From Sulfolobales archaeon (GTDB lineage Archaea > Thermoproteota > Thermoprotei_A > Sulfolobales > NBVN01): 64,000 bases of DNA. Positions within the stretch are counted from its first letter, which is position 1. The number at the start of each line of letters is the position of its first letter. Of the stretch, positions 25,987 to 43,164 are shown piece after piece. The stretch is from positions 96,001-160,000 of the forward strand of contig JAWBTQ010000002.1 of the NCBI GenBank assembly GCA_038841535.1, in the 5' to 3' direction. The notes below the pieces were generated by a model. The model was not told the origin of the DNA. It saw only the letters and a program-made list of their open reading frames with translations, and ran no database searches. A program made the position numbers and the translations under genes.

Positions 25987-26051
25987 CCGTAATGAGAGCG
26001 TCTCCTAGTTCTCCCCTCATATTATAAACATTTTTGATTAGAAAGCGGAAA

Positions 26052-26153: not shown

Positions 26154-26212
26154 CTCCAACTTTCATTGGTATCTAGAAACTGCCTATAGTGTCATTGGTG
26201 GCTTTGGGTTAA

Positions 26213-26806: not shown

Positions 26807-26968
26807 ATGCTCCCTATTTCTAGCTAACTGAGGATACTTCTTAAAACAGCTCTAGTTCTAGGCTTGGGTAGATCGTATAGTAGGTTTCCCATGTCGCAGC
26901 TCACGGAGAATCTCTAGTGATGTATAGGTACCCTATCTCCTCGAACTTAAAATAGTTTCTGATCTCTA

Positions 26969-26992
26969 GGTTACGTAATCTTCCCTTTATTA
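26969..26992 (+). promoter_or_regulatory. GTTACGTAA palindromic site plus TATA box upstream of the GH42 operon
   Basis: GGTTACGTAATC at 26969-26980, TTTATTA at 26986; the same site precedes two other locus promoters. Confidence 0.7.
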
Positions 26993-27023
26993 GCAGCCTG
27001 GTTTTCGCGATTACGGACGTGGC

Positions 27024-29183
27024 ATGGCGCACACGCATTCTCGGACTAGGGTTTACCCCCTAGGTTTATGGTATGGAGTCGGCAAAGTTACACCAGTCTT
27101 CGATGCGTCTAAAATCCGCGATGACCTGAGGAAGGTCAAGGATCTGGGTGTAGGCTTTGTTAGACTTTGGGTAAACTGGAGAGATATCGAGCCGAGACCG
27201 AGTGCGTACGCATTTGGAGAGTTGAAGGAGGCTATGGACGAGGCCGAGGAGATCGGGCTTTCCGTAGTAATCCAAGTCTACTTAGAGTTTGGACCAGATT
27301 GGCTTCCGAAACTCTACCCCGATGCCGTTTTTATTTCTGAGTCCGACCTAAAGCTGTATCACCAAGGTAGCCCAGGAGTTTGCCTAGACCACCCCTCTGT
27401 GAGAAGGCATGCTGAGAGGTTTCTTGTGGAGCTAGCTGGGTTCGCAAAGAAGTACAGCAGCCTATATGCTTGGGACGTATGGAGCGAACCACAGATAGTC
27501 CAATGGGTGTTCAGGCTTGGGTTTCCTAAGTCAGTCTACTGCTACTGTGAGCACAGCGTGAAGAGGTTTAGGGAATGGCTTAAGGAGGTCTACGTAAGTA
27601 TCGACGCGCTAAACGCGGCATGGCATAGGTCCTTCAATTCGTTTGAGGAGGTTCAGCCACCTAGGTTTGTAGTCCTTCACTATGCTAAGGAGAACATTGA
27701 CTGGGTAGAGTTTAACGTCTGGAAGCTCAAGGAGGATCTGCGTTGGAGGGTCGAGACTATCAAGAAAGTCGACCGGGAGCATCTCGTAGCAAGTCACGCA
27801 GCTACGTCGTCAGTTCTATTGAACCCCCTATTTGGGCACCCAGACGACTGGGAAATGTCTAAAGTCGTAGACGTTTGGGGTACGTCTCTATACCCTAAGC
27901 ACGCTCACAGAGTCCCTGATCCAGCTGTAGATAGCTTCATTCTAACCTCAGTAAGGTCTTCTGCTGACGCATGGGGAAAGAGCTTTTGGATAGGGGAACT
28001 CCAGGGAGGCCAAGGAGTTGGGGGCCTAAAGATAGCGGACGTAGTACACCCAGAAGACATTAACGTATGGTTCTGGCAGTCCGTAGCCCACGGCTCTAAG
28101 GGAGCCTTCGTATACCACTCCTATCCAATGATGTGGGGTTACGAGTCTTCGGGATACGGTCTACTAGACCCCGCTGGCAATTTAACGAATAGAGCAAGGG
28201 CTTTAGCGTCTATATCAAACATAGTGAGAGAGTACGGAGACATGCTTGCAGAAGCTAGACCTTTGAAAGCTAAGTGCGCACTATTATATAATAAGCACTC
28301 GTACAGACTGCTGTGGGTTCTTCAGGAGGAGTCGGCAGCAGCATTCTCTAGGTCTCTCCTGGGTGTGTACAGAGTTCTATACAAGCATAACGTTCCTGTA
28401 GATGTGGTCTCCATAGAGCAGTTCATGAACGACCCGAGTAGCTATGTGCTACTGATGGCTCCCTTCTCGATAGCTGTTTCCAAAGAATTCTCTGGTGCTC
28501 TAGAGAGGTTTGTATCGAGCGGAGGTGTGCTTTTGGCGGATGCTAGATTTGGGTGGTTCAAGGAGGACGGCTGGATAGACGGAGAGATACCGTGCTACAA
28601 CCTCTCAAGAGTTCTCGGTGCAAGAGAGAAGTCCTGCAGAAGCTTAACTGAGTCGAAGGCTGTTATGAGGGTCGTGAACGAGGTAGTCCCAGGGCTCAAG
28701 TGTGGCGACATCGTGGGGATGTGGCACTATGCTGAAACCATGGAGTTATTAAGTGAGAACACTATCCCTGTAGCTGAAGTAGGTAGTGCAGAAACAGCTC
28801 TAACGATTAACAATTACGATAGGGGTTTCGCACTGTGGGTTGGCACATCCATAGGGTTAGCCTATGAGAACATGCGTGACCTAGGCATAGAGAAGCTTAT
28901 TAAGGGAGTTGTGGAGCTTGCTGGAATACGTCCACCCGCAATAGTGGATCCAGTAGGTGCTCTCGAAGTTAGAGTTCTTACTGTGGGAGGAGGAGGCGAG
29001 AGACTAGTGGTAATGATAAACCAAGGCTTAGAGGAGGTGAGAGCGAAAATAGCTTTCCCGGAGGACAAGTGGTTAGAGAAAATAAGAGACATAATAACGG
29101 GCAAGTCCTACGTGGTTAGAGGAGGTGAGCTCGAGCTGTCTGTGCCCCCTAGAGGTGTAATCGTTGGGTACTCAAGGCAGTAG
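27024..29183 (+). CDS. GH42-family glycoside hydrolase (beta-galactosidase-like)
   Basis: W..IEP, WDVWSEP acid/base Glu, YCYC, LNAAW, FWIGELQGG nucleophile, trimerisation and C-terminal domains. Confidence 0.88.
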   Translation: MAHTHSRTRVYPLGLWYGVGKVTPVFDASKIRDDLRKVKDLGVGFVRLWVNWRDIEPRPSAYAFGELKEAMDEAEEIGLSVVIQVYLEFGPDWLPKLYPDAVFISESDLKLYHQGSPGVCLDHPSVRRHAERFLVELAGFAKKYSSLYAWDVWSEPQIVQWVFRLGFPKSVYCYCEHSVKRFREWLKEVYVSIDALNAAWHRSFNSFEEVQPPRFVVLHYAKENIDWVEFNVWKLKEDLRWRVETIKKVDREHLVASHAATSSVLLNPLFGHPDDWEMSKVVDVWGTSLYPKHAHRVPDPAVDSFILTSVRSSADAWGKSFWIGELQGGQGVGGLKIADVVHPEDINVWFWQSVAHGSKGAFVYHSYPMMWGYESSGYGLLDPAGNLTNRARALASISNIVREYGDMLAEARPLKAKCALLYNKHSYRLLWVLQEESAAAFSRSLLGVYRVLYKHNVPVDVVSIEQFMNDPSSYVLLMAPFSIAVSKEFSGALERFVSSGGVLLADARFGWFKEDGWIDGEIPCYNLSRVLGAREKSCRSLTESKAVMRVVNEVVPGLKCGDIVGMWHYAETMELLSENTIPVAEVGSAETALTINNYDRGFALWVGTSIGLAYENMRDLGIEKLIKGVVELAGIRPPAIVDPVGALEVRVLTVGGGGERLVVMINQGLEEVRAKIAFPEDKWLEKIRDIITGKSYVVRGGELELSVPPRGVIVGYSRQ

Positions 29184-29970
29184 TGGAGCGAAAATCCGCG
29201 ACTTGCCCCAGGAGTGGTACGAAAGAGTGCTCGGACTGCTCGACTACATCGCTAAAACCCAGCGCAAAAATATTGAGAAAGCAGCCGAAATCGTCGCAGA
29301 CTCTATATTCAAGGGACATGTGTGTTTTCTGTTTGGGTCAGGTCATGCTGCTATACCAGTGATGGAGATTTTTCCTAGATATGGGTCGATGGTTGGGTTC
29401 GTGCCCATAGTAGACCTCCCTCTAATATCCTTCCTTAGGCTAGTGGGGGATATGGGCTATCCGCAGTTTGATTGCATAGAGAACTCGCCTGAGTATGGGC
29501 GCAGAATAGTTGAGAACTACGAGATTCACAGAGACGACTGCGCCATTGTCTTCTCTCATTCTGGTACTACGCCCGTCACCTTAGAGGTAGCACTACAGAT
29601 TAAGAGCAGGGGTTCTAAAGTGATTGGGATAACCTCGGTAGCTCATTCGTTGAGGGCTAGACCACGACATCCGTCTGGATTAAAGCTATTCGAGGTTGCT
29701 GATGTGGTTATAGATACAGGAGTACCACCGGGAGATGTTTCCATAGAGGTATTTAGCGGGGGAAAGCCTATCAAAGTAGGACCTCTCTCCACAATAGCGT
29801 TCGTGTTCGTAGCTAATTTTGTGCTCTTAAGCACCTATGAGCAATTGCTCAAAGCCGGTTACGACCCTATAACGCTGCCAGTTAGAGGTTTCGACTCAGA
29901 TGCCGACATCCTCATGAGGAAAGCCCTCAGTAAGTACAGAGAGCTATACTCTAAACACATCTCTAAGTAG
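29164..29970 (+). CDS. SIS-domain sugar-phosphate isomerase-like protein (UPF0309 type)
   Basis: FGSGHA, FSHSG, VIGITS..HS, KLFEVADVVIDTGVPPGD, GPLST. Confidence 0.85.
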   Translation: MGTQGSSGAKIRDLPQEWYERVLGLLDYIAKTQRKNIEKAAEIVADSIFKGHVCFLFGSGHAAIPVMEIFPRYGSMVGFVPIVDLPLISFLRLVGDMGYPQFDCIENSPEYGRRIVENYEIHRDDCAIVFSHSGTTPVTLEVALQIKSRGSKVIGITSVAHSLRARPRHPSGLKLFEVADVVIDTGVPPGDVSIEVFSGGKPIKVGPLSTIAFVFVANFVLLSTYEQLLKAGYDPITLPVRGFDSDADILMRKALSKYRELYSKHISK

Positions 29971-29978
29971 GGGATGGA

Positions 29979-30935
29979 ATGGTGTTGCGCAACGTCGTAT
30001 TGTCAATAGACGTTGGTGGAACTAAGATTGCGTACGCGTTTATCGACTCCGGAGGAGGAGTTCATGATTACGGTATCGTAAAAACTAGGAGAGCTGGGGG
30101 AAGGCAGGTTATCAACCAGCTCAGAGAGATCGTTAGATCCTGTCGCTACAAGAAGGTTGTTGGCGTGGGGGTGAGCGTGCCAGGCATAGTTAGAAACGGA
30201 TCGGTTACCTGGGCACCTAACATTAGGGAATGGAGGGACGTCCATTTAGCCGATCTGATAAGCAGGGATATCCCCGAGGGAGGCCTAATAGAGGTCGTAG
30301 ACGATAGGACGGCTAGCGCTCTGGGTGAGATGTGGCAGGGGGCGGCAAAGAGTCTATCAAATTTCATAGTGCTAGTCATAGGGACGGGAGTCGGTGCCGG
30401 CGTAGTTATTGACGGTAGGCCTGTCCATGGCTCAGCTGGTGTTTCGGGAGCTGTAGGTTGGTGGTTACTATCGCGAAGTCTTCCACATCGGAGTACCCGG
30501 AGAGGTTTTCTCGAAGAAGAGATAGGGGGATTAGCTCTCGATAGAATCGCCAGAAGGTACTCTTCATCAAGAACCTCAACAGGCTCTCCACTTCGCGAGC
30601 TATGCGAATTCGTCGATTCGACTTGCTTGTTTAGAGCTTACGACCTTGGGCACGATCTCGCAAAAAACACCCTAGAAAGGAAAGCAGTATTACTCGGGAT
30701 CCTCATAGCTAACTTACTGAGCCTGCTTAACCCCGAGGCCGTTATACTAAGTGGTAGCGTCGGAGTTGAGCTAGGTAAAAGGTTTATGCCGCTCATCAGG
30801 AGAGTAGTTGAGGCAGTAGCGCAACCGTACGCCACCAAGAGCTACCGCTTAGAGGTATCAAGCCTAGGTCACTTGTCCTGCTTATACGGCTCTGCCTACT
30901 TCGTATTGAAAAGAATGGGGAGCATAGGTAAGTAA
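29979..30935 (+). CDS. ROK family sugar kinase
   Basis: DVGGTKI, GVSVPG, ALGEMWQGA, GTGVGAG; no N-terminal HTH. Confidence 0.9.
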   Translation: MVLRNVVLSIDVGGTKIAYAFIDSGGGVHDYGIVKTRRAGGRQVINQLREIVRSCRYKKVVGVGVSVPGIVRNGSVTWAPNIREWRDVHLADLISRDIPEGGLIEVVDDRTASALGEMWQGAAKSLSNFIVLVIGTGVGAGVVIDGRPVHGSAGVSGAVGWWLLSRSLPHRSTRRGFLEEEIGGLALDRIARRYSSSRTSTGSPLRELCEFVDSTCLFRAYDLGHDLAKNTLERKAVLLGILIANLLSLLNPEAVILSGSVGVELGKRFMPLIRRVVEAVAQPYATKSYRLEVSSLGHLSCLYGSAYFVLKRMGSIGK

Positions 30936-30978
30936 TAAGACCACTTTTTTGTTCTGTTAGTTTCTAACTCGTGAGACT

Positions 30979-32193
30979 ATGCTGCTTGGAGTAGTTGAGG
31001 GGTTCTATGGGCCCGCCTGGGACTGGGTTGAGAGGATTAACATTATGGAGTTTCTGAGTAGGGTAGGTCTCAATGCCTACATATACGCACCTAAGTGGGA
31101 TCCTCGTCATAGGGATTGGTGGAGGATTCCATACGAACCTGTCTTTGCTGATAGACTAAGCATGCTATTAGACTCGGCTTCTAGGTACGGAATCAGAGTT
31201 GTTTTCGCCCTAAGCCCGGGCTTAGACATGGACTACTCGTCAGAGCACGATGTTAGATTGCTAGTAAAGAAGTTCTCTTGGGTTATGGAGCTGGGGGTTG
31301 AAGATTTAGCCGTGTTTTTAGACGATATCCCGCCGGTTCTTAGAGGAAAAGGGTTCAAGACTCTAGCAGAAGCTCAGTCTTCCTTAGTGAACAAGTTGCT
31401 TAGGGAGCTGAGACCTAAGTCGCTGGTGTTCTGCCCTACCTATTACCACAGTCTGCGGGAGGACTACATGAGAGAGATAGGCGATCTCGTTGATCCCGAG
31501 GTATACATAGTTTGGACTGGTATGTGGGTAGCCTCACACAAAATAGACGTAGGGGACTTAGAATCCGTGGCCAAGCTCTTAAAGAGAAAGCCGTTCATAT
31601 GGGATAACTACCCAGTTAACGACTACTTCACCGTTTACGGAATTACGAGGCTACACCTAGGGCCCCTAAAGAACAGACCTAAAGAGTTCACCAAATATAT
31701 CTCCGGCTACGCATCTAACCCCATGAATCAGTATGAAGCATCTAAGATACCTCTATACACTATCGCAGAAGCCTTACTAAGTACGTCATACGACCCCGAA
31801 AAGAGTTTATCGGACGCTATAGACAGCATACTCAATAAGAACTCTAGGTACTGGTTTAAGAGGTTTGTGGAGTTTAACCGAGCTAACTTTATGGACTTAA
31901 CGGAACGTACTATAACTAGAGAAAATGCTGACGAGGTGATCGAGCTAGTCAGAGAACTTCGTGAATCTATAGGAAACAAGAAGTTGGTTAGAGAAGTTGA
32001 CTCAGTGTTAAGCAAAATGGAGTCCATAGCCAGGTACTCTAAAAACGAGGTATCCTATCTAAGCTGGCGAGTTCAGACTGCAGGTGAGTACAGTCCCCCA
32101 ATAACAGCTGAGAGAATGTTGAAGGAGGTGTTCGGAGTAGTAGCCCGACTCACTCCTTGGTACAGTAAGGCCTACGTAAAGCCCGAGGTGTAG
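30979..32193 (+). CDS. GH84 beta-N-acetylglucosaminidase (O-GlcNAcase/NagJ family)
   Basis: GVVEGFYG.AW, YIYAPK.DP.HR..WR, ALSPG, FLDDI catalytic Asp-Asp, FCPT.Y, WTG, IWDNYPVND, SNPMNQ.EAS. Confidence 0.93.
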   Translation: MLLGVVEGFYGPAWDWVERINIMEFLSRVGLNAYIYAPKWDPRHRDWWRIPYEPVFADRLSMLLDSASRYGIRVVFALSPGLDMDYSSEHDVRLLVKKFSWVMELGVEDLAVFLDDIPPVLRGKGFKTLAEAQSSLVNKLLRELRPKSLVFCPTYYHSLREDYMREIGDLVDPEVYIVWTGMWVASHKIDVGDLESVAKLLKRKPFIWDNYPVNDYFTVYGITRLHLGPLKNRPKEFTKYISGYASNPMNQYEASKIPLYTIAEALLSTSYDPEKSLSDAIDSILNKNSRYWFKRFVEFNRANFMDLTERTITRENADEVIELVRELRESIGNKKLVREVDSVLSKMESIARYSKNEVSYLSWRVQTAGEYSPPITAERMLKEVFGVVARLTPWYSKAYVKPEV

Positions 32194-32196
32194 AAA

Positions 32197-33480
32197 GTGA
32201 TAATTAGGGCGTATAGGAGAGGTGATGAAGAGGAAGTCGTTGAGCTACTCAAGATGTGCTTTGATGACTTCAATAGGTGGGGTGTGTCAGCGGAGGACTG
32301 GCTTTCGTATGAGGAAGGAGACTACGGCTTTAAGATAGATAACGCTCTTGTTGCTGAAGTCAGTGGTAGATTGGTAGGACACCTTCACTTAGTGATACGG
32401 AATGCGTACATAGGTGAAGGTTCCTTTGATATCTGCGGAATAGCTAATGTTTCAACTCACCCGGACTTCCGAGGTAGGGGTATAGCTACCGCCCTCGTGA
32501 AGAGAGCTATAGAGGTGTGTAGAGAAATGGGTTTACCTGTAGTTTCACTACTTACCGGCTATGGAGGTGAGGGGTATCGCGTATATAGGTCCGTGGGTTT
32601 TTCGAACACGGCTTTTCTGAGAGCATACGTAGGTGCTCGAGATAGTGTCGAAAAGTTTTTAGAGAGTTATGGGAAGATCAGGCTAGAAGTTGAAGAAATA
32701 GGCTACGGGAACATCGATGAAGTAGCTAAGCTTCACGATACGTTACGGAGGAAAGTAAATCTTGTCATATCGCGTCCCAGAGACTACTGGGTCAGCAAGG
32801 TACTGAAGAGATTCTTTTTCTATAGCTTCTTTTACGATCGCTCCGAGGAAGCTATAAAGCTACTCTTCAGAGACTCCTCCGGTCCGGTGGGTTATTCTCT
32901 GGCTTTTAGTGGGCAACGCGCCTCGAGGAACTACTGGCAGAAAGATGCAGGAGTAGTACTTGAAGCTGTAGCTATCAACGAGAAATACTTGAAGAGCGTA
33001 ATCTCCGAGACCCTAAGGCGACTACTCGATAGTGGGGCGAAGTTGTTCAGGCTCTACGTGCCACCATTATACAGGCCTATATTACGCTATAGCTTTGAGG
33101 AGTTCAAGGGGGGTTTACTAATGGACTACGTAATCGACTTAAAGAAGCTTCTGAGCAGTATGAGGGATGAACTCTCGAGGAGAGCAGCTTCCGCAGAGCT
33201 TAGGGGCCCTATGGACATCAGCATAAGGAGTCCATATGGATGCGCAAATGTTAATGTAGTTGATTCTAATGTGGAGATAAGTAGTTCCTGTAAGTTCGAG
33301 AATGAAGTGGAGTTCACCAGAGATGGCATCGTTAAAACTATCTATGGAGTAAGCTCCATAGGCAAACTAGTAAATAAGGACCAGGTAATGAGAATAAACC
33401 TTAGCTCACAAGCTTTTAAAGCAGTAAATGCCCTCTTTCCGGCTAGACCAATATACATCCCAAGGATGGACCAGTGGTAG
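32197..33480 (+). CDS. Eis-like GNAT acetyltransferase (tandem GNAT + SCP2-like C-terminus)
   Basis: GIANVSTHPDFRGRGIA acetyl-CoA motif, YRSVGF, second GNAT repeat, C-terminal LFP...MDQW. Confidence 0.85.
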   Translation: MIIRAYRRGDEEEVVELLKMCFDDFNRWGVSAEDWLSYEEGDYGFKIDNALVAEVSGRLVGHLHLVIRNAYIGEGSFDICGIANVSTHPDFRGRGIATALVKRAIEVCREMGLPVVSLLTGYGGEGYRVYRSVGFSNTAFLRAYVGARDSVEKFLESYGKIRLEVEEIGYGNIDEVAKLHDTLRRKVNLVISRPRDYWVSKVLKRFFFYSFFYDRSEEAIKLLFRDSSGPVGYSLAFSGQRASRNYWQKDAGVVLEAVAINEKYLKSVISETLRRLLDSGAKLFRLYVPPLYRPILRYSFEEFKGGLLMDYVIDLKKLLSSMRDELSRRAASAELRGPMDISIRSPYGCANVNVVDSNVEISSSCKFENEVEFTRDGIVKTIYGVSSIGKLVNKDQVMRINLSSQAFKAVNALFPARPIYIPRMDQW

Positions 33481-33832
33481 TCGGAGAATCTGCGAGTCCA
33501 CACGACTTCGAGCCTCTTAGGGAAGTACGAAACGGAGATCTCGTAATTTTAAAGCCTCTTCAATATTCTATTCATAAAAGCAGAGCTATGTCGAGGTTCC
33601 CCAAAGAGATGTTAAAACTAATGTGCTAAGCGTTATTACGAGAAGACTAAAGTAGAGTAGAACGTGTGGATCATTACGCTCATATTGGGACCTACAGTAC
33701 TCAGTTACTAGTGGAGGGTTAATCAGCAAATAGAATCTTAGAGTATGGACAGCACTTATAGCCACACCATGTACGGCAGCAAGTCACAGATTTTTCCAGT
33801 GTCCTGGGTCCTCTCTTAGTCTTGGGAGCTCT

Positions 33833-33857
33833 GGTTACGTAACTCTGTGGTTTAAAT
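33833..33857 (+). promoter_or_regulatory. GTTACGTAAC palindromic site plus TATA box upstream of the ABC operon
   Basis: GGTTACGTAAC at 33833-33843, TTTAAAT at 33851. Confidence 0.7.
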
Positions 33858-33879
33858 GATTCTAGCGATCAACTCACGG

Positions 33880-35910
33880 GTGCTAACTACGCCTCTACAG
33901 AAGTGGGTGATTTATGTTATAGTTGTAGTAGTCATAGCTGCAGTTGCTGTCGGTATAGCAGCCCAGTTACTCCTTCCGCCACCAGCCGTTCAACCAACTC
34001 CCACACCTACCCCTACCGCAATTACCCCCGCAACAACACCGACTCCCACAACACCTCCAACAGTGACACCTACGACTACTCCTTTACCTACAACACCGAC
34101 TCCCACACCGACTCCTGGGGAGAAGGTAGTATACTTGTACGGTAGTTGGCCGCCCCCTGAGAACTATATTACTAACCCCCTGGTAGGTACCATAGGGATG
34201 CTTCACTACTATACCCACATGCCACTAGTGTTTCTAATACCCGCTGATAGAGCACCATTACCTGGGTTACTCGGTGAGTACCCTAAGCTCATTTCGCTCT
34301 TAGCTGATGCCTGGGTATTCAAAGAGTATCCAGGTTCGAATTTAACTATAGCGGAGGTAAAGCTTAAGAAAACTGGTTGGAGTGATGGTAATCCGCTAAC
34401 AGCTGAGGACGTTTTTATTAGTATAGTGTACTACGGATGCTTCTACAACTCATTTCCCGGCTACTATGAGGTAATTAATGAAACAGCTATAAGGAGGTAC
34501 TGGAACGCTACGGGCATTAGATTCGAAACACTCACCTCGTGGATGTGGTCTTGGTACGGGATTTGGGCATCAAGAGAATACTACAAAGTGGAGCCATTGT
34601 GGCCGATCTGTATAGAGCAGTACAGGCTACTAAAGGAGCGCTACTACCTAACAACAGTGGGGAAGCCTGTACCTAAGGAATTAACGGATAGACTTACTCT
34701 GCTCAATAAGTGGTTCAGGGGGAACCTAACGGAGATAGCTAAGAAGGTCCCAGCATACCTAGCTAATGGACCCTTCTATCCAGCTAAGATCACAGAGTCC
34801 CACATTATTTGGGAGAAGAACCCGTACTTCTGGAACACTAAAGGTATGGCAATAGATAGATGGGTGATGCTAAGCACTCCTGAGACTGCAGTCATAATAG
34901 AGAACATCGGTCGCGGAGCCGTTACGTGGTCGACGCTAACATCAATAGTGCCAGACATCGTTGACGCACTTAAAGCTATAAACAGAGACCTATTGGTGTA
35001 CCCACTAACTCACTATCGCATGGTCGGCATACTCTTCAATTTCCAGAGATACCCGATGAACGATACACACTTCCGTAGAGCGATCGCTTACCTTGTAAAT
35101 AAAGACGCCATTTTCCAAACTCTTCCCTTCTACGCTAAGGAGACCATACTAAACATAGGGCTACCGGAGGAGTTCTTGTGGAAATGGATCTCAAGCGACG
35201 ACTTAAAGTACTTCACAAGGTACACCTACGACCCCAAGAAGGCGGAAGAAGAACTGCTCGCCGGAGGCTTCAGAAAAGACCCTAGAACTGGTAAGTGGCT
35301 TCTACCGAACGGTACTCCCATATCCATTACCATAACGATTACCTCTGATCCCATGTATGTAATACCAGCTGAAGCTATTGCCGGGATGCTTAACAGCTTC
35401 GGAATCACGACGCAGATAAGTGTTGTTCCATCAGCTGTTTGGACGACACTCGTTCGGACCTACGCTACTACCTACGCCGTAGAGAGAAATTACGACATAA
35501 CCATCTGGATATCTAGCTTGATGTACGCTACTGCTCACCCGTACTGGACATGGTCCCACATACTCATGCTCGGATGGGGTGCTGGAGGAGCAATAGCTTT
35601 CCCGAACTGGTGGAACATACAGCATCCGTGGAAGAGCTGCACTAACGACGAAAACATATCTAGGTTGTTCACTATACTCTACAACAACCCTGGTACAGAC
35701 GTCGAGAAGTGCGCCATTAAGGCGTTCGCATGGGTCGTCAACGAATATGTGCCTGTCTTACATTTGTACGAATATGGTGTCTGGGTATTCATGAACAGTA
35801 AGGACATCAAGGGATGGCCCCCGGAGGAAGACCCGGTTTGGAGCGTAAGATTAATGGACGCTGGCTACTATCGAGCTCTCCTGCTACTCTCGATATATTA
35901 CCTGCGTTAA
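33880..35910 (+). CDS. ABC transporter substrate-binding protein, family 5 (Opp/Dpp, oligosaccharide-type)
   Basis: N-terminal TM, Pro/Thr linker, WSDG.PLTAEDV, GPF, FRRAIAYLVN, YDPKKAEEEL; the track ATG 33856 lies inside the TATA box, so GTG 33880 is preferred. Confidence 0.9.
   Translation: MLTTPLQKWVIYVIVVVVIAAVAVGIAAQLLLPPPAVQPTPTPTPTAITPATTPTPTTPPTVTPTTTPLPTTPTPTPTPGEKVVYLYGSWPPPENYITNPLVGTIGMLHYYTHMPLVFLIPADRAPLPGLLGEYPKLISLLADAWVFKEYPGSNLTIAEVKLKKTGWSDGNPLTAEDVFISIVYYGCFYNSFPGYYEVINETAIRRYWNATGIRFETLTSWMWSWYGIWASREYYKVEPLWPICIEQYRLLKERYYLTTVGKPVPKELTDRLTLLNKWFRGNLTEIAKKVPAYLANGPFYPAKITESHIIWEKNPYFWNTKGMAIDRWVMLSTPETAVIIENIGRGAVTWSTLTSIVPDIVDALKAINRDLLVYPLTHYRMVGILFNFQRYPMNDTHFRRAIAYLVNKDAIFQTLPFYAKETILNIGLPEEFLWKWISSDDLKYFTRYTYDPKKAEEELLAGGFRKDPRTGKWLLPNGTPISITITITSDPMYVIPAEAIAGMLNSFGITTQISVVPSAVWTTLVRTYATTYAVERNYDITIWISSLMYATAHPYWTWSHILMLGWGAGGAIAFPNWWNIQHPWKSCTNDENISRLFTILYNNPGTDVEKCAIKAFAWVVNEYVPVLHLYEYGVWVFMNSKDIKGWPPEEDPVWSVRLMDAGYYRALLLLSIYYLR
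33991..34116 (+). repeat. Pro/Thr-rich low-complexity linker (PTPTPT) coding repeat
   Basis: QPTPTPTPTAITPATTPTPTTPPTVTPTTTPLPTTPTPTPTP; ACACCGACTCCCACA repeated. Confidence 0.85.
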
Positions 35911-35933
35911 GATCAGTCTACAGGCTGGTGTAA

Positions 35934-36962
35934 ATGGAGTTAACGGGAGTTTTTCCGTTCATTAAGTTACTCTCGAAGAGGGTTTTATATGCGATTTTAA
36001 CAATTATGGTAGCCGTCTCGGTAACTTTCGTGGCTATAAGGTCTATGCCTGGAGATGTGCTTTACACGCTGGCAGTATCGCTAGCAGAAGAGCTGAGGAT
36101 CTCCGTAGAGGAGGCCAAGAAGATAGTGTTCTACATATACTATGGGATTGACGTCGAAGAACCGATCTACCTACAGTACCTTAAGTATGTCATTGGGTTA
36201 CTGCAGGGGAACCTAGGGTACTCGACATACTTCAAAAGACCCGTTACTTACGTTGTAGCCAGGGCGCTAGGCTGGACAGCGTTTACTCTTTCCGTGGGGA
36301 TCTCTCTGTCTTTCGCTATTGGGATACTGATAGGGATGCTGGCAGGTTTTAAGCGCGGAACTAAGTTTGACGCCATAGTATCTCTGACCTCGACAGTACT
36401 GTCGGCTATACCGGGATACGTAGTAGCGCTACTACTGTACATCATGCTATCTGCGCGACTAGGACTCCTACCAGCAAGAGGAGCCTACTCACCGCACGTA
36501 GAACCGGGACTAAACCTAGCGTTTATGATCGACGTACTCTACCACGCAGCTCTCCCAGTACTCACATACGTAGTGATAACTTTCTCTGGCTGGACGCTAC
36601 TCATAAGATCGAACGTGGCGAAGATACTGGAGGAGGACTTTCTCAAGTACGCTGAGGCGCGGGGAATTAGCAGGAGGAGAATAGTGACTACCTACATAGG
36701 TAGAAACTCCATACTGCCAATAGTGCCTCTCCTGGCTATAAGAGTGGGGAGCATGATTGGCGGCTCTACCCTCATAGAAACGATCTTCGCGTATCCCGGT
36801 ATGGGGTATTACCTATCTCTAGCTCTTAGCATTAGAGATTACGGTCTTCTCCAGGGCATATACTTTATGATGATAGTCGCAACTATAGTTGCGGTAATAG
36901 TGGTCGAGTTCCTCACCCCGTTAATAGATCCAAGAGTTCGACGCGAGGTAGTAGCAACATGA
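35934..36962 (+). CDS. ABC transporter permease (DppB/OppB type)
   Basis: MPGD, QY..Y..GLLQGNLG.S, EDF..YAEARG EAA loop, IETIFAYPGMG, DPRVR. Confidence 0.93.
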   Translation: MELTGVFPFIKLLSKRVLYAILTIMVAVSVTFVAIRSMPGDVLYTLAVSLAEELRISVEEAKKIVFYIYYGIDVEEPIYLQYLKYVIGLLQGNLGYSTYFKRPVTYVVARALGWTAFTLSVGISLSFAIGILIGMLAGFKRGTKFDAIVSLTSTVLSAIPGYVVALLLYIMLSARLGLLPARGAYSPHVEPGLNLAFMIDVLYHAALPVLTYVVITFSGWTLLIRSNVAKILEEDFLKYAEARGISRRRIVTTYIGRNSILPIVPLLAIRVGSMIGGSTLIETIFAYPGMGYYLSLALSIRDYGLLQGIYFMMIVATIVAVIVVEFLTPLIDPRVRREVVAT

Positions 36963-37846
36963 CTTCCTACAGGAGTTCTAAGTCGAGACTTAAGCTCATA
37001 TACTTAGACTTCGTGAGACCAGTAATCCTAAGCGGTAGAGGAGTCCTAGGTATCGCTATCATAGTCTCCATGATCTTTATGGCTACATTAGGGCCCGAGC
37101 TCATACCTCTAGATACGGGTGTTAAGCCGCAGATGAAGTGGTGTCAGCCCTCTCTTGAGCATCCGCTAGGGTGCGACTACCTCGGCCGCGACCTGTTCTC
37201 ACTGGTAGTTCACGGTTCGAGAGAGGTCTTCCTTATACCCTTCTGTGCTACTTTGATTGGTGTGGTCGTAGGGCTATCTATAGGTCTGTTAGCAGGTTAT
37301 ATTGGCGGGTTGGCTAGAAGAGCTCTAACCTCAGTAACTGACACGTGGTTAACAATACCGTCGTTTCCAGTAATATTTATATTAGCCTACGCTTTACCTA
37401 AGTCTCCGGTCTCCATAATACTTCTACTAACTCTCTTTAGCTGGCCCGGGCTAGCTAGAGCGGTAGCCGCTGAAGTATCCTCATTGAAGCGCAGAGACTA
37501 CATCGAGGCGTGCGTTAACCTAGGCCTTGGGAGGGGCTACATACTGTTCAGAGAGATAGGACCTCACATACTCCCATTTGTAGCAATCAACTTCGCCTCG
37601 GTTTTCGTCGCAAACATGACGTCTCTAATAGGCATAGTCCTCCTCGGGGTAGCCCCACTGAACCCAACTAATTGGGGCTACTTACTAAACCAGATGATAT
37701 TTACTTACAAGGGACTGCTCCTAGCTAATGCATCAGTAGTGATAGTGTTGATGATACTCATGTTGGTTTTTATAAAGCTGGGTGTAGTGTTCTTTGCTCA
37801 ATCCCTCGAAGAGGTCTTTAACCCAAGGTTGAGGAGGTATGAGTGA
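36959..37846 (+). CDS. ABC transporter permease (DppC/OppC type)
   Basis: PSLEHPLGCDYLGRD, YIEA...G, NPRLR. Confidence 0.93.
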   Translation: MTSYRSSKSRLKLIYLDFVRPVILSGRGVLGIAIIVSMIFMATLGPELIPLDTGVKPQMKWCQPSLEHPLGCDYLGRDLFSLVVHGSREVFLIPFCATLIGVVVGLSIGLLAGYIGGLARRALTSVTDTWLTIPSFPVIFILAYALPKSPVSIILLLTLFSWPGLARAVAAEVSSLKRRDYIEACVNLGLGRGYILFREIGPHILPFVAINFASVFVANMTSLIGIVLLGVAPLNPTNWGYLLNQMIFTYKGLLLANASVVIVLMILMLVFIKLGVVFFAQSLEEVFNPRLRRYE

Positions 37847-38846
37847 AAAACTCGATAAGAACCAGAAGCTGGTTATCCGTGACCTGAGAATGGAGTACCT
37901 AGTGAGAGAAGGGACCGTAAAAGCGGTAAACGGAGTCAACCTCACTATACCTGAGGGGAGGATTACCGCTATCGTGGGCGAGAGCGGCTCCGGGAAAACC
38001 TCTCTGGTTGAGACCTTTCTTAAAATTTTACCTAAAAACGCGAGAATAAGGTCCGGTAAGGCCCTTCTCAAGCTCTCCAACGGAACAGCTGTAGACCTGA
38101 TAGAAGCGAGCGATAGCTTAATGAGAAAGCTAAGAGGGAGAGTCGTGGGATATATACCTCAAGGAGCGCAAAACTCTTTAAACCCTGTCTTAACCATCGA
38201 GCAGCACTTCCTCGAAACCCTCAGGGAGCATGGGACTCACTCTAAGGAGGCTATCGAGGAGAGAGTTCGCGCAATGCTTTCTCTCGTTAGGCTAGACCCT
38301 GAGGTCGTCTTGAAGAAGTACCCTCATGAGCTAAGTGGAGGCATGAAGCAGAGAGTTGTGATAGCATTGACTATGTTACTCCAACCGGAACTAGTAGTTC
38401 TAGACGAGCCAACTTCGGCTTTAGACATCTTCTCTCAAAGGGTTCTGCTGAACATACTCTACAAGATCCAGTCCACTTATAAGAATACCATGGTTTTGAT
38501 CACACACGATATCCCGATAGTATCAGAGCTAACCGATAGGGTGGCGGTTCTCTACGCAGGAGCTATAGTAGAGTCCGCAGATACGTACGAGGTATTCAAG
38601 GAGCCTATACACCCCTATACCTCTATGCTTATATCTGCCATACCTTCGGTAGTAGACGTCTACCTAAAGAGGGTGCCTAAGCCGGTACCTGGAGAGCCCC
38701 CCAGTCTTCTAAATCCACCACCAGGCTGCAGATTCCATCCTAGATGTCCTCACGCTTTTGAGAAATGCAGGCTTAAGGAGCCTCCTACGGTAGAAGTGCA
38801 CTCAGGTCACTTCGTTAGTTGCTGGCTGTACGCCGAGGGTGTGTAG
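37839..38846 (+). CDS. ABC transporter ATP-binding protein (DppD/OppD type)
   Basis: GESGSGKT, YPHELSGGMKQR, LDEPTSALD, HPYT, CRFHPRC. Confidence 0.95.
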   Translation: MSEKLDKNQKLVIRDLRMEYLVREGTVKAVNGVNLTIPEGRITAIVGESGSGKTSLVETFLKILPKNARIRSGKALLKLSNGTAVDLIEASDSLMRKLRGRVVGYIPQGAQNSLNPVLTIEQHFLETLREHGTHSKEAIEERVRAMLSLVRLDPEVVLKKYPHELSGGMKQRVVIALTMLLQPELVVLDEPTSALDIFSQRVLLNILYKIQSTYKNTMVLITHDIPIVSELTDRVAVLYAGAIVESADTYEVFKEPIHPYTSMLISAIPSVVDVYLKRVPKPVPGEPPSLLNPPPGCRFHPRCPHAFEKCRLKEPPTVEVHSGHFVSCWLYAEGV

Positions 38847-38848
38847 AG

Positions 38849-39883
38849 ATGAAGAGGGTTGTCGCAGTAGAGAAGGTAAGTAAGACCTACTCCAGAGGGT
38901 TATTTAAGAAGAGGCTTATCAGTGCAGTGCAGAGCGCTTCTCTCGAGGTATCTAGCGGTGAGTTAATTAGTATCGTTGGTGAGAGCGGCTCCGGAAAGAC
39001 TACTCTGGGAAAGTTGATGACTGGCTTAGTCCTTCCTAGTAGCGGGAGGCTAATCTGGAGAGACGTGGACGTAATTAAGAACGGAAGAATAGTCAATAGA
39101 GAGTTCTACTCTTCGAATAGACATAGATACGTATACGTCCATCAAGACCCGTATAGTGCTCTAAATCCTTCTAAGAACGTATGGGACACTCTCAACCCGG
39201 TGATCAGTAAGTACAAGAAGCACTTAGGAACATCGGATAAGTATAAAACAGTGATAGAGCTCCTAGAGGAGGTAGGACTAGTTCCAGCAGATTACTTCAT
39301 CGATAAGTATCCTCACCACCTCTCTGGAGGTATGAGGCAGAGACTTGCTCTAGCGAGAGCTCTGGCAGCTGATCCTCACTTCATAGTGGCAGACGAAATA
39401 GTGAGCATGGTAGACCCGTCAATAAGGATATCGCTAGTGAACCTCCTCAAGGATATAGTGAAGGCGCGCAATATCTCGGTAGTGTTCATATCTCACGACC
39501 TCGGAATATCTATTTATGCCGCTGAAAACAACTTCATGTACGTGATGCTTAACGGGGTGGTCGTAGAGTACGGTCCTGCCTACGAGATAGCTTACTCCCC
39601 CGAACATCCGTATACAAGAGCCCTAATATCTAATACATCCGTTCCACTACCCTCACGAGAGAAGCGTGTGAGAGAGCTAGATGGCGTTGCGGTCGAAGAC
39701 AGTAAACCCAGGCCAAACACACTGTGCCCATTTGCTTCTCTATGCCCGTTTGTTGATTCAGAGTGCTCTTCTTTTGAGCTTGGGTTTTACTTAAAAGCAG
39801 GTGCTAAGCACTTCTCAGCGTGTTTAAAGACTGGAAAGCTACCTAAGTGGAAGCCCAGCTGGCTCCAAACCCTATCTGGGTAG
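38849..39883 (+). CDS. ABC transporter ATP-binding protein (DppF/OppF type)
   Basis: GESGSGKT, YPHHLSGGMRQR, ADEIVSMVD, HPYT; start set at MKRVV. Confidence 0.94.
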   Translation: MKRVVAVEKVSKTYSRGLFKKRLISAVQSASLEVSSGELISIVGESGSGKTTLGKLMTGLVLPSSGRLIWRDVDVIKNGRIVNREFYSSNRHRYVYVHQDPYSALNPSKNVWDTLNPVISKYKKHLGTSDKYKTVIELLEEVGLVPADYFIDKYPHHLSGGMRQRLALARALAADPHFIVADEIVSMVDPSIRISLVNLLKDIVKARNISVVFISHDLGISIYAAENNFMYVMLNGVVVEYGPAYEIAYSPEHPYTRALISNTSVPLPSREKRVRELDGVAVEDSKPRPNTLCPFASLCPFVDSECSSFELGFYLKAGAKHFSACLKTGKLPKWKPSWLQTLSG

Positions 39884-39888
39884 AGCAG

Positions 39889-40089
39889 ATGAGAGCACAC
39901 CCAATTATTCTAGTCGACCTTCTAGCATTAGCCGTAGTCACATTAGTACTTTCCGCTGTAGCTCTAGCAATACTACAGCCATCTGATGAAGCATATCTGC
40001 CGGCACTCTCAGCCTTATTTATTTCTTTAGTCCTCGTCTTTGTAGCCCTAGTCGGGTTTAGGAGAGCTATTAAAGTAGAGAAAACGTAG
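39889..40089 (+). CDS. Small two-TM membrane protein
   Basis: ATG 5 nt after the ATPase stop; two hydrophobic helices and a basic tail. Confidence 0.6.
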   Translation: MRAHPIILVDLLALAVVTLVLSAVALAILQPSDEAYLPALSALFISLVLVFVALVGFRRAIKVEKT

Positions 40090-40093
40090 AGTC

Positions 40094-40118
40094 GTTACGT
40101 AATCCTTTCCCTTTAAAC
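40094..40118 (+). promoter_or_regulatory. GTTACGTAA palindromic site plus TATA box upstream of the tri-domain hydrolase
   Basis: GTTACGTAATC at 40094-40104, TTTAAAC at 40112, ATG at 40136. Confidence 0.7.
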
Positions 40119-40135
40119 TTCTAACCCCAAAAAGT

Positions 40136-42805
40136 ATGGGGGAAATATTGAGAACTATTTATATCGTAATCCTGACTATAGTAGTGGTCGCGGCTATAGT
40201 CACCCCCACAGTTTTCCGGGTTCTTAAGCCTGAGACGTCGGAAACATCTACACCTATAGAAACTACGGCAGTAGCTTTCACTCTAGTACAGCTACCGCTT
40301 AGAAAAAGACCATTCGTGTGGACCTGGATCTACAGCACGAAATCCAGCGAAGTCGCCGAGCTCCTGAGCAGATTCGGAGGTCGCGCGATAGATGTGGTCT
40401 CACCTGATTGGTACTATCTTACCGAGGACTTGAGTCTAGGTTTATACTACGAGAGAGGGGCGGAAGACCCAGGTTTTGTGAAACTTAGTAAAGACTCAGG
40501 AATCTTGATAGTCCCGATGGTTGTTTCTTCTAAAGGAGATAGAGTAAAGAACCTAATAACGAGTCGGGAAGCTATCGAGAGGTTCTCCAGGCAACTCGTA
40601 GAGACAGCAGCTAGAATGGGATACTCCGGCTTTAATATAGACTTCGAGGTAAGCCTCCCACTCTACTCTAGAGAGTTCGCTGAATTCATAGACTATCTTG
40701 CTAAGAGGCTTCATGAGGCTGGACTTATATTAACTGTAGCAGTGCCCGCCAAGAGGGCTGAGATCCGTAGCGACTATCTAATGACTTACGACTACCAACT
40801 TCTAGCAAAAACAGACGCTGACTACATTATGATCATGGCATACGACTACTACGAGATAGTGGGACCTAAGCCGGTCGCCCCCATGCCTTGGGTAGAGGAC
40901 TGTATTGAGTACTCCCTAAGGTTCTTCCCTAGAGAAAAACTCGTTCTCGGCGTCCCTAATTACGGAAAAGTTTGGGACGACAAGGGCAAGTTAGTGAAGT
41001 GGTTACTGCACCAGGATTATCTGTCCATGGTATCCCAGGGAGAGCGCTTTGTAGTAGACCTAAGCTCGAGAGAGCTTATGGCTAAAACAGCCGAGGGAGT
41101 AGCATACTACGTTGATGGAGAGATGGCGTACTACCGAGCAAAGCTCGCACTCTCCCATCGCTTAGCCGGTGTAGCAATATGGAGACTCGACGGGGGAGAC
41201 CTCGGCTTATGGGAGCTTCTCGAGGATTTCCGTCTCTCGCATGCGGGACCCCCCGACTACCCTCTAGCTAAGTGGATAGAGGCCTACTCAGGTAATTATC
41301 AAAAGTCAAACAGAACGGAAGTCAACTGGATAGTGGTCCACGTCACCGAGGGCTCGACTCAGTCTGCTATTAACTGGTTCCTAGACCCACGATCCGGAGT
41401 TTCAGCCCATTATATAATCTCGTTGGGAGGATCGGTCTATCAAATGGTTATGGAGAAAGACATCGCTTGGCATGCGGGTAACAAGCAGTACAACCTACTG
41501 TCTATAGGTATAGAGCATGAGGGCTTCGTTAAGGCAAGGATGTTTACGGAATCTCAATACAGATCGTCCGCCCGCTTAATAGCATATCTAGCCTATAAGT
41601 ATGGCATATCATTAGATCACGTAGTCGGCATAGCTCCTCCGGATCCCGCGGAAAGTAAAGGGATAATAGGGCACGACCAAGTTCCTGACCCGAGGAATCA
41701 GACGATAGGTGGAGGAATCTCCCACCACACTGATCCTGGACCATACTGGGATTGGCGTTTATACATGGAGCTCGCGAGGAAGTACTACGAAGCCTTAGTA
41801 AGTGGAAATTATGAGAAGGCCTTTATCGCAGTGTGGTGGGGTGTTTACTCGGATAAGTGGAGCATGAATAGAGATGTCTGGCTTAAGCAGGTTAATGAAG
41901 CTCTAGCTAAGCTCAAGAGAGCTGGGGTTGACGCTGTGTTCTTTCTAGTTAAGGACCCCTGGGGCTACGTATATTACAATAGCTCCTACGCACCTCTGAA
42001 CCCGAAGTATTCTTGGGACGTTCTCGGCGATGTAGTGAAGGTCGCTAAAAAATATGGAATAGAGGTTTACGTATATATAAACGCTCTATCCGAGGGAGAG
42101 ACCAGTCCCGGGTTCTATTTACAGCAGAACCCCCACTTCGCTCTCTATGATGAGTACGGAAACATGCTCGGTTGGGTAGACCCCTACTGTGAAGAATACG
42201 TGCAGAGGCTCCTCGACATAGTAGCTGAGATATTGACTAAGTACCCCGAGGTCAGAGGGGTACAACTAGATAGAATAAGAGCTCCTCAGAGCAACGTCAT
42301 CGGAAAATGCTCTTCGGAGGGTTTCTGGAAGCAATATGGTAAGAACCCCAAAGACGATATACGACTCTACCAGAAGTTTCTAGTTGACGGTATAACTAGC
42401 ATAGTCAAGAGAGTTTCTGCTTTAGCTAAGAGCGCTAGGCCCGGCATTCACGTGTCTGCCGCAGTATTCCCGAGTCCAACCGCCGTTCATACCGTACTCC
42501 AGGATTGGATTTATTGGGTTAACGAGGGTGTGGTCGATGCTGTCGCAACAATGACCTACACAATAGACTTTACAACGTTTAAGAGTTACGTGACATCACA
42601 GCTCGGAACTATTAAAGACCCTAGTAAGCTCCTTATAGGTGTAGGAGCGTGGCAGCTATTAGACGAAATGCTGGTATCCCAACTGAGTTATGTGATAGAG
42701 GAGCTTAATCTCAAGGGAGCTGTTCTGTTTAACTTAGACAGCCTAATAGACAAGAACCTGGCCGAAACCCTTACCAAGTTCAGACTTACATACTATTGCC
42801 GATAG
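40136..42805 (+). CDS. Membrane-anchored tri-domain cell-wall hydrolase: GH18 (SleL/YaaH-like) + N-acetylmuramoyl-L-alanine amidase (Amidase_2) + GHL10/DUF187 glycoside hydrolase
   Basis: N-terminal TM and S/T linker; GH18 GFNIDFE, IMAYD, KLVLGVPNYG, GVAIWRL; amidase IVVHVTEG, VSAHYII, IAWHAG, SIGIEHEG, IIGH, HTDPG; GHL10 GIEVY, GVQLDRIR, VSAAVF, QDWIYW..G.VD...MTY. Confidence 0.9.
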   Translation: MGEILRTIYIVILTIVVVAAIVTPTVFRVLKPETSETSTPIETTAVAFTLVQLPLRKRPFVWTWIYSTKSSEVAELLSRFGGRAIDVVSPDWYYLTEDLSLGLYYERGAEDPGFVKLSKDSGILIVPMVVSSKGDRVKNLITSREAIERFSRQLVETAARMGYSGFNIDFEVSLPLYSREFAEFIDYLAKRLHEAGLILTVAVPAKRAEIRSDYLMTYDYQLLAKTDADYIMIMAYDYYEIVGPKPVAPMPWVEDCIEYSLRFFPREKLVLGVPNYGKVWDDKGKLVKWLLHQDYLSMVSQGERFVVDLSSRELMAKTAEGVAYYVDGEMAYYRAKLALSHRLAGVAIWRLDGGDLGLWELLEDFRLSHAGPPDYPLAKWIEAYSGNYQKSNRTEVNWIVVHVTEGSTQSAINWFLDPRSGVSAHYIISLGGSVYQMVMEKDIAWHAGNKQYNLLSIGIEHEGFVKARMFTESQYRSSARLIAYLAYKYGISLDHVVGIAPPDPAESKGIIGHDQVPDPRNQTIGGGISHHTDPGPYWDWRLYMELARKYYEALVSGNYEKAFIAVWWGVYSDKWSMNRDVWLKQVNEALAKLKRAGVDAVFFLVKDPWGYVYYNSSYAPLNPKYSWDVLGDVVKVAKKYGIEVYVYINALSEGETSPGFYLQQNPHFALYDEYGNMLGWVDPYCEEYVQRLLDIVAEILTKYPEVRGVQLDRIRAPQSNVIGKCSSEGFWKQYGKNPKDDIRLYQKFLVDGITSIVKRVSALAKSARPGIHVSAAVFPSPTAVHTVLQDWIYWVNEGVVDAVATMTYTIDFTTFKSYVTSQLGTIKDPSKLLIGVGAWQLLDEMLVSQLSYVIEELNLKGAVLFNLDSLIDKNLAETLTKFRLTYYCR

Positions 42806-43135: not shown

Positions 43136-43164
43136 ACGAAACTAGAAACAGTCACTTGAGGAAC

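Follow-up and report, generated by a model that had tools for sequence, protein, structure and literature searches.

Catabolic operons for N-acetylmuramic acid (MurNAc) are known from Bacillus subtilis (murQ-murR-murP-amiE-nagZ-namZ) and Escherichia coli (murR/murQ-murP-yfeW), and digestion of murein by an amidase together with an endo-N-acetylglucosaminidase yields mainly MurNAc-GlcNAc, in which GlcNAc stands for N-acetylglucosamine (PMC8054146). The 16-kb locus described here lies in a 64,000-nt window (the whole stretch of DNA that was analysed, G000:C2:96001-160000) of a 1.56-Mb archaeal genome that is 84% complete and assembled in 40 contigs. It resembles these bacterial operons (PMC8054146) in combining a putative amidase, an exo-N-acetylglucosaminidase, a second exo-glycosidase, a phosphosugar enzyme of the SIS fold and a PBP4B/YfeW-type protein, all of which would feed NagA. 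It differs from them in that the archaeal host makes no murein, so that it would serve foraging and not recycling; in that an Opp-type ATP-binding cassette (ABC) importer and a ROK kinase are found where the bacteria have a phosphotransferase system; in that MurQ, NagZ (GH3) and NamZ (GH171) are replaced by a UPF0309 SIS_2 protein, a GH84 enzyme and possibly a GH42-like enzyme; and in that a TATA-proximal palindrome of archaeal type would regulate it. The sequence suggests that the logic of the bacterial MurNAc/muropeptide catabolic operon has been re-created in an archaeon, mostly out of non-orthologous parts. With a probability of ca. 60%, we read the locus as the harvesting arm of an amino-sugar regulon in two parts, by which a wall-less hyperthermophilic archaeon feeds on bacterial peptidoglycan.

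Two further systems come close to the surface enzyme of the locus. The first is E. coli DigH (YddW), of the GHL10 family, a hydrolase specific for the denuded (peptide-free) glycan left by amidases, so that amidase action precedes the cutting of bare glycan (PMC12288456). In the archaeal protein, amidase, DigH-like and GH18 domains occur in one polypeptide at the cell surface, the GHL10 domain matching DigH residues 93-341 at 25% identity (pairwise, E 2e-8), and its activity is a predicted one. The second are the archaeal peptidoglycan hydrolases, which likewise show archaea encoding a murein-cleaving enzyme with a catalytic domain seemingly of bacterial origin; these are stand-alone, secreted enzymes of other archaea, whereas here the hydrolase is embedded in what appears to be an import and catabolism regulon (PMC12352652). 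The discussion of that paper leaves open whether such hydrolases serve killing or scavenging, and the strings "Thermoprot", "Crenarch" and "Desulfurococc" have zero occurrences in its main text, supplements excluded. Literature searches, again supplements excepted, returned archaeal peptidoglycan hydrolases and no archaeal locus in which a single operator would link a hydrolase with import and with amino-sugar catabolism; an earlier note on this DNA was likewise aware of no such integrated locus described in crenarchaea. Where PMC10437873 deals with murein degradation, it does so at the community level only.

The locus consists of 12 open reading frames (ORFs), all on the plus strand, that fill positions 27024-42805 of the window:

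27024-29183, plus strand: GH42-like glycosidase, 719 aa, predicted cytoplasmic (Pfam GH42 148.5 bits, GH42M 58.3 bits)
29164-29970, plus strand: SIS_2 / UPF0309 phosphosugar enzyme, 268 aa (Pfam SIS_2; NF002805 219 bits)
29979-30935, plus strand: ROK-family sugar kinase, 318 aa (Pfam ROK 131.7 bits)
30979-32193, plus strand: GH84 beta-N-acetylglucosaminidase, 404 aa, predicted cytoplasmic (Pfam NAGidase 277.8 bits)
32197-33480, plus strand: three-domain Eis-like GNAT, 427 aa (Pfam Acetyltransf_9 70.1 bits)
33856-35910, plus strand: family-5 (Opp/Dpp-type) substrate-binding protein, membrane-anchored (Pfam SBP_bac_5 103.8 bits)
35934-36962, plus strand: ABC permease 1 (Pfam BPD_transp_1 136.8 bits)
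36959-37846, plus strand: ABC permease 2 (Pfam BPD_transp_1 71.6 bits)
37839-38846, plus strand: ABC ATPase 1 (Pfam ABC_tran and C-terminal oligo_HPY)
38819-39883, plus strand: ABC ATPase 2 (Pfam ABC_tran and C-terminal oligo_HPY)
39847-40089, plus strand: 80-aa ORF with two hydrophobic spans, kept in G004 and G005
40136-42805, plus strand: surface-anchored three-domain enzyme, 889 aa (Pfam GH18, Amidase_2 and GHL10)

The earlier note had listed 12 co-oriented genes with these domains, among them a microprotein with two membrane spans and a surface-anchored enzyme fusing GH18, amidase and GHL10, and the ORF list and the Pfam profile searches agree with it on each of these. Inside units, genes overlap or are separated by 3-46 nt, and 375 nt precede the binding-protein gene, a spacing that suggests three transcription units.

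The 889-aa enzyme has one N-terminal hydrophobic span (residues 8-27), then a Ser/Thr-rich linker and three domains:

40553-41191, plus strand: GH18 domain, residues 140-352 (Pfam 66.4 bits, cut-off 29.6), with the motif NIDFE
41315-41743, plus strand: Amidase_2 domain (PF01510), residues 394-536 (Pfam 104.8 bits, cut-off 26)
41885-42583, plus strand: GHL10 domain (PF02638), residues 584-816 (Pfam 65 bits, cut-off 27.9)

In alignments of the Amidase_2 domain to AmpDh2 and AmpD, the metal ligands (two His residues and the DPG-motif Asp) and the catalytic Glu are all in place (motifs VVHVT, GIEHEG, IIGH and TDPG), and the Lys preceding the DPG motif, a residue with a role in Amidase_2 enzymes, is replaced by His. 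DigH itself scores 453 bits for GHL10. The catalytic D-x-E of GH18 is present as NIDFE, and the nearest solved chains are 5jh8, 3cz8 (YdhD), 4s3k (YaaH) and 4s3j, a cortical-lytic enzyme being included among them; YdhD and YaaH are spore-cortex enzymes, YdhD coming from B. subtilis. Given the intact Amidase_2 residues, the DigH-family GHL10 domain and a GH18 domain close to YdhD and YaaH, the protein is best read as a peptidoglycan hydrolase, and peptidoglycan, as proposed in the earlier note, is most likely its target; the order of events suggested by the fusion would be to strip the peptides and then cut the bare glycan. Nine protein clusters have all three domains and four more have Amidase_2 and GHL10 only; names are found on only 3 of these 13 clusters, all of them archaeal, and the next-best matches are amidases with 36-48% identity over ca. 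20% of the query, mostly under bacterial names and one labelled Bathyarchaeia.

The top GH18 match in the PDB, 5jh8, is named "probable chitinase", which speaks for a locus that handles chitin, chito-oligomers or another GlcNAc glycan (N-glycan or chains of the N-acetyllactosamine type). The GH18 domain would then be the depolymerase, the Opp-type ABC system an oligosaccharide importer and the GH42-like protein an exo-glucosaminidase or galactosidase; a route for GlcNAc and glucosamine (GlcN) would be formed by ROK, SIS_2 and NagA. The chitin cluster of Thermococcus kodakarensis (ChiA, an Opp-type ABC system, GlmA, GlmD and Dac), which we take to comprise a surface depolymerase, an Opp-type importer, a GH35/42-like exo-glycosidase and a SIS-fold enzyme, would be a parallel. 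We consider this explanation unlikely, since the GH18 domain, the only one in the genome, shares its polypeptide with an intact Amidase_2 and a domain of the DigH family, neither of which has a substrate in chitin, so that the depolymerase, unlike that of the Thermococcus cluster, carries murein-specific domains. Moreover, no carbohydrate- or chitin-binding module, a usual if not universal companion of chitinases, was detected in the enzyme (Pfam, E <= 0.01), and neither a PIG-L (PF02585) nor a CE4 (PF01522) deacetylase, and no Dac-type enzyme, was found in the 84%-complete genome. The GH42-like enzyme was also considered as a counterpart of Thermococcus GlmA, which found no support: no GlmA chain is among its PDB matches at E <= 0.001 and GLMA_2nd is undetected at E <= 1.

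Each of the three transcription units is preceded by a short palindrome and a TATA-like box:

26970-26978, no strand assigned: operator copy 1, GTTACGTAA, 7 nt upstream of the TATA-like box
26986-26992, plus strand: TATA-like box TTTATTA of promoter 1 (read from the sequence), the ATG lying 38 nt downstream of its first base
33834-33843, no strand assigned: operator copy 2, GTTACGTAAC, a perfect 10-bp palindrome, kept at the binding-protein genes of G005 and G004
33851-33857, plus strand: TATA-like box TTTAAAT of promoter 2 (read from the sequence)
40094-40102, no strand assigned: operator copy 3, GTTACGTAA, starting 5 nt past the stop of the 80-aa ORF
40112-40118, plus strand: TATA-like box TTTAAAC of promoter 3 (read from the sequence), with the ATG 24 nt downstream

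The boxes are thus found 7, 8 and 9 nt downstream of the operator copies and 24-38 nt before the start codons, and the distance of 24 nt at promoter 3 makes a leaderless transcript probable. In the window, exact GTTACGTAA occurs only at 26970, 33834 and 40094, which amounts to 4 strand-wise matches since the palindrome at 33834 counts on both strands; 0.40 are expected and none of 100 shuffles reached 4. When one mismatch is allowed, 15 matches against 13.1 expected represent no excess over chance. Genome-wide there are 57 copies of TTACGTAA, and at 7 positions a TATA-like box lies 5-12 nt away: the three locus promoters, the promoter of a second SIS_2 gene (C2:174142; see below), a duplicated pair at contig ends and one site inside an ORF. 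Spacing between TTACGTAA and the TATA-like box is 7-9 nt at the four amino-sugar promoters. It is 5 nt at the contig-end pair (C4:128231 and C22:43; L074 8232, minus strand), where TTTAAAC and then ORFs of 109 and 111 aa follow; this pair was rejected as a member of the regulon, its 5-nt spacing, two small ORFs and repeated contig end making it probably unrelated, and the sequence is probably a repeated mobile element.

In G005 and G004, of the same genus, the 10-bp palindrome and a TATA-like box are kept ahead of both the binding-protein gene and the enzyme gene, and at the promoter of the second SIS_2 gene the operator is kept in G000, G005 and G009 as well as in G039 and G029 of another family. 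When 12 promoter regions from 6 genomes and two families are aligned, TTACGTAA is the sole invariant block. The shared operator, which the earlier note had reported at all three promoters, is real and phylogenetically conserved, and the position of TTACGTAA directly upstream of the TATA boxes would tie the four promoters together. As a separate observation, a motif related to the operator, CACGTTATTACC, occurs upstream of an operon encoding an AbrB-PhoU protein and NagA in G000 (L060 6590-6605) and G009 (L067 ca. 11215-11235, minus strand), and GTTATTAG precedes the TATA-like box of the G005 GH42 gene (L016 ca. 17380, minus strand), where TTACGTAA is missing; such motifs may represent the operator in degenerate form or as a half-site.

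Conservation of the genes was surveyed in 41 related genomes. Full-length homologs of the enzyme are found in G000, G004, G005 and G039, relatives of it with GH18 only in G010, G029, G035 and G039, and the GH42-like protein together with a SIS of the locus type in G000, G003, G004, G005 and G039. Gene order in G005 is that of the locus (GH42, SIS, ROK, GNAT, ABC importer, small ORF, enzyme), except that GH84 is missing there and located elsewhere in the genome; in G004 the locus is split over two contigs; and in G039 the enzyme, the ABC genes, GH42 and SIS are on one contig in a rearranged order. The synteny comparison therefore indicates that the genes are conserved together, both in genomes of the same genus and in one that belongs to another family, as the reading of the earlier note would have it, and the patchy distribution (4 of the 10 genus genomes) fits an accessory island.

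These comparisons also bear on whether the surface enzyme serves chiefly as a weapon against bacterial competitors, with neighbouring genes devoted to general GlcNAc salvage. Archaeal peptidoglycan hydrolases that kill bacteria have been published, with scavenging left open (PMC12352652), and in G039 the gene of the enzyme and the ABC genes converge, with no TTACGTAA site at the former. We nevertheless hold this explanation to be improbable: in three same-genus genomes the enzyme and importer promoters have a common operator, genomes that have the enzyme also have GH42 and the locus SIS, and the enzyme is membrane-anchored and not secreted, so that its products would stay close to the cell.

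Turning to the predicted cytoplasmic enzymes, E155 and E325 of the GH42-like protein align to the catalytic Glu pair (acid/base and nucleophile) of solved GH42 enzymes. Asn-Glu at the acid/base position is a hallmark of clan GH-A, in which the Asn normally contacts the sugar O2; solved GH42 chains have SNE or NNE, whereas the protein described here has Ser-Glu (WSEP), invariant in 10 of the 10 aligned homologs, from which we infer a sugar with a non-hydroxyl substituent at C2. On these residues the protein is assigned to a divergent GH42 subfamily. The GH84 protein matches PDB 5diy with an E-value of 7.9e-63 and has an Asp-Asp dyad in VFLDDIPP; in G005, G039 and G029 its gene adjoins the second SIS_2 gene instead of the main locus, and we regard GH84 as movable within the regulon. 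Neither the GH42-like nor the GH84 protein has a signal peptide, so that both would need an imported oligosaccharide. For the ROK kinase, every NCBIfam equivalog scores under its cut-off.

The SIS_2 protein of the locus has PDB matches to 3cvj and to NagS (9eol), the latter being the Streptomyces UPF0309 protein SCO4393, a GlcNAc-6-P dehydratase that eliminates the 3-OH of its substrate (PMC12680351). Both SIS_2 proteins of the archaeon pass NF002805 (cut-off 135) and keep H53, R64, E94 and D179, which are essential in NagS. The locus copy also keeps S119 and S121, while at the sugar contacts S54 is changed to Ala, S91 to Asp and N228 to Gly, with an Arg beside the last. MurQ eliminates the 3-O-lactyl group of MurNAc-6-P, and by analogy it is a reasonable inference that the locus protein is of the NagS type with a remodelled pocket, a candidate MurNAc-6-P lyase that works like MurQ rather than being a MurQ. 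Its context, unlike that of NagS, appears catabolic and not one of signalling. GH84 and NagA are GlcNAc enzymes, and the GH42-SIS-ROK trio is also found in Caldivirga-like genomes and in G128, all without Amidase_2, both of which would suit a chitin or GlcNAc-glycan locus; the trio alone is thus not diagnostic of murein and could act on another sugar. Its neighbours in those genomes (sugar-acid enzymes, DUF6785, a U32 peptidase and an FtsX-like protein) were examined as a clue to the sugar and are uninformative.

A second cluster is located 28 kb downstream and outside the window (G000:C2:170628-174943; L060 6629-10944). It consists of the AbrB-PhoU protein, NagA (316 bits, cut-off 225.65) and a PBP4B-like protein, followed by the fourth operator and the SIS_2 paralog (SIS2b). 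The PBP4B-like protein is a predicted cytoplasmic serine hydrolase with SLTK, YSDIN and HTG motifs that reaches 178.5 bits with the equivalog model (cut-off 385) and is 29% identical to E. coli YfeW (E 4e-50), whose gene follows murQ-murP (murQ-murP-yfeW); its presence argues against a chitin or GlcNAc-glycan locus. SIS2b (NF002805 248 bits) keeps all nine GlcNAc-6-P contact residues of NagS, including S54, S91 and N228, which is a point in favour of that same alternative, and its gene adjoins that of NagA, the enzyme acting after NagS. At an identity of ca. 30% to NagS, the SIS_2 proteins of the archaeon fall outside the clade that PMC12680351 describes as active. SIS2b may take the place of GlcN-6-P deaminase in archaea or belong to a GlcNAc-6-P route of the NagS type. 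NagA and a UPF0309 SIS_2 paralog lie side by side or close together across several families (G001, G002, G006, G008, G009, G021, G033 and G035), and in G005 the order is NagA-PBP4B-SIS2b-GH84. The earlier note had placed a full pathway at the locus, but NagA, the PBP4B-like hydrolase, the second SIS_2 and the likely regulator lie outside the window. As a side observation, ORFs for a 639-aa DNA_pol_B-like protein and for 178 aa lie between SIS2b and an M20 peptidase gene (G000:C2:175260-177949; L060 11261-13950); since SIS2b and M20 are direct neighbours in G009, this stretch of G000 may be an inserted element.

The AbrB-PhoU protein, of 315 aa, is of AbrB/MazE type at its N-terminus and PhoU-like over the rest, PhoU being assigned on the basis of an Atlas lead (feature score 0.94, structural TM 0.81). 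It is the likely regulator of the operator, an identity that we infer from its context. Close homologs are found in 8 of the 10 genus genomes, its gene adjoining NagA in G000, G001, G002, G006, G008 and G009 and the enzyme gene in G004 and G005; a weaker homolog is found in G035, ca. 6 kb from a GH18-only gene and ABC permeases. An HTH_3 protein encoded just past the locus (43165-43884) was set aside as regulator, because it is a well-conserved core gene, 79-85% identical in the genus, that lies on other contigs in G005, G004 and G009. The G004 ortholog of this HTH_3 gene (G004:C19:6152-6859) has one in-frame TAG.

The Opp/Dpp-type importer is complete, with a family-5 binding protein, two permeases and two oligo_HPY ATPases. 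The binding protein has an N-terminal hydrophobic span and a long Thr/Pro linker, and its homologs align only from residue 88-89 on, past that linker; the annotated ATG at 33856 overlaps the TATA-like box, and the start is therefore probably the GTG at 33880, 29 nt past the start of the box. Among its best matches in NCBIfam and the PDB are binders of oligopeptides and dipeptides, and a PBP4B-like serine hydrolase predicted to be cytoplasmic and an M20 dipeptidase-like gene occur in or near the second cluster. This would suit an importer that carries stem peptides, with the same chemistry outside the cell and sugars entering by another way. Such a division has little probability in our view, because two cytoplasmic exo-glycosidases need imported oligosaccharide, neither cluster encodes another transporter, and the binding protein resembles a Thermotoga mannoside binder about as closely as it does the peptide binders. 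The 80-aa ORF next to the importer is 47-59% identical at the same position in G004 and G005 (tblastn) and matched no Pfam or NCBIfam family. The GNAT, 56-59% identical in G004 and G005, has weak PDB matches (3n7z, 4my0 and 2ozg) and the acetyl-CoA motif RGRGIA; that it re-N-acetylates glucosamine residues is a guess.

Under the peptidoglycan-feeding reading, the Amidase_2 domain of the membrane-anchored enzyme would take off stem peptides outside the cell, and the DigH-like GHL10 and YdhD/YaaH-like GH18 domains would cut the denuded glycan into MurNAc/GlcNAc di- or oligosaccharides, for import by the Opp/Dpp-type ABC system. In the cytoplasm, the GH42-like enzyme and GH84 would free monosaccharides that the ROK kinase would phosphorylate; the locus SIS_2, as a NagS/MurQ-type lyase with altered sugar-contact residues, would take off the lactyl ether; and the PBP4B-like amidase or peptidase, NagA and the SIS_2 paralog of the second cluster would finish the process. 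The GNAT might re-acetylate de-N-acetylated sugars, and the AbrB-PhoU protein would act at the TTACGTAA operator of the four promoters. A stronger version, in which a crenarchaeon lives partly on bacterial walls through a self-contained MurNAc pathway of non-orthologous parts (the amidase/DigH/GH18 fusion, a GH42-derived exo-muramidase and a UPF0309 SIS MurNAc-6-P lyase) controlled by AbrB-PhoU at TTACGTAA, is one that we put forward tentatively and with more doubt than confidence.

Several points weigh against the reading as a whole, beginning with the chitinase name of the top GH18 match and the trio found apart from Amidase_2, in G128 with NagA undetected as well. Enzyme activities and ligands are predictions from sequence, GH42 enzymes are classically beta-galactosidases, and the dipeptide and mannoside binders nearest to the binding protein in the PDB are equally weak guides, at similar E-values. 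The locus SIS_2 is no MurQ ortholog, scoring 24.3 bits with the MurQ model NF003915 (cut-off 168), and NagB (PF01182) was not found in the 84%-complete genome. NagS homologs outside Streptomycetaceae (26-36% identical) are reported as inactive on GlcNAc-6-P, their substrate not being known (PMC12680351, section 10). The palindrome is absent upstream of GH42 in G005, and the main-locus promoters of G039 have no TTACGTAA site. Finally, one metatranscriptome library, from a strain 95-99% identical, has contigs over 23 of 30 bins, which may include DNA and can neither show transcription nor rank genes, and the uncovered bins carry no information.

As for the source of the DNA, the nearest protein clusters and related contigs, some near-identical, are titled Sulfolobales, Desulfurococcaceae or Thermoproteota archaeon, and by this measure the organism is a Sulfolobales/Desulfurococcaceae-type archaeon. 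The GC (guanine plus cytosine) content is even across the window, and the left flank AT3-DUF1805-TK is syntenic and 68-84% identical in G009, of the same genus. One contig of run X11, from another study's assembly, spans 25500-27319 and bridges the left junction with zero differences. A bacterial or chimeric contig, which the earlier note had named as fatal to its reading, is rejected on the strength of these archaeal titles, the even GC content, the G009 synteny and the X11 contig. In G009, AT3-DUF1805-TK is joined directly to M20-SIS2b-NagA-AbrB-DHDPS, which indicates that in G000 TK is separated from an inverted M20-SIS2b-NagA-AbrB-DHDPS block by the 16-kb locus and additional DNA. Near-identical copies of the whole stretch or part of it were found in hot-spring metagenomes (15 rows from 8 studies), some of which are possibly its source. 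A dispersed repeat of ca. 180-280 nt (window 42879-43160) begins 74 nt past the enzyme gene, has more than 40 BLASTN copies of 68-93% identity on more than 20 contigs, and coincides with a depth spike and with loose ends of assembly in other runs; it looks like a miniature inverted-repeat transposable element. An island boundary at 42879 was rejected, the loose ends there falling on this repeat. Rfam gave no match anywhere in the window, including the repeat.

A hydrolase that has its operator and synteny in common with import and catabolism bears on whether archaea eat bacteria or merely kill them, and makes this question of 2025 testable. The locus predicts substrates for UPF0309 SIS_2 proteins inactive on GlcNAc-6-P and for the Ser-Glu subfamily of GH42, and provides a crenarchaeal sugar regulon with a defined operator and a candidate for its regulator, as well as a candidate thermostable murein-degrading enzyme with three predicted activities. 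The stronger version, if true, would be the first genetic evidence of a nutritional role for archaeal peptidoglycan hydrolases and would assign substrates to two orphan enzyme subfamilies. Ecologically, the locus would point to bacterial necromass as a source of carbon and nitrogen for hot-spring archaea.

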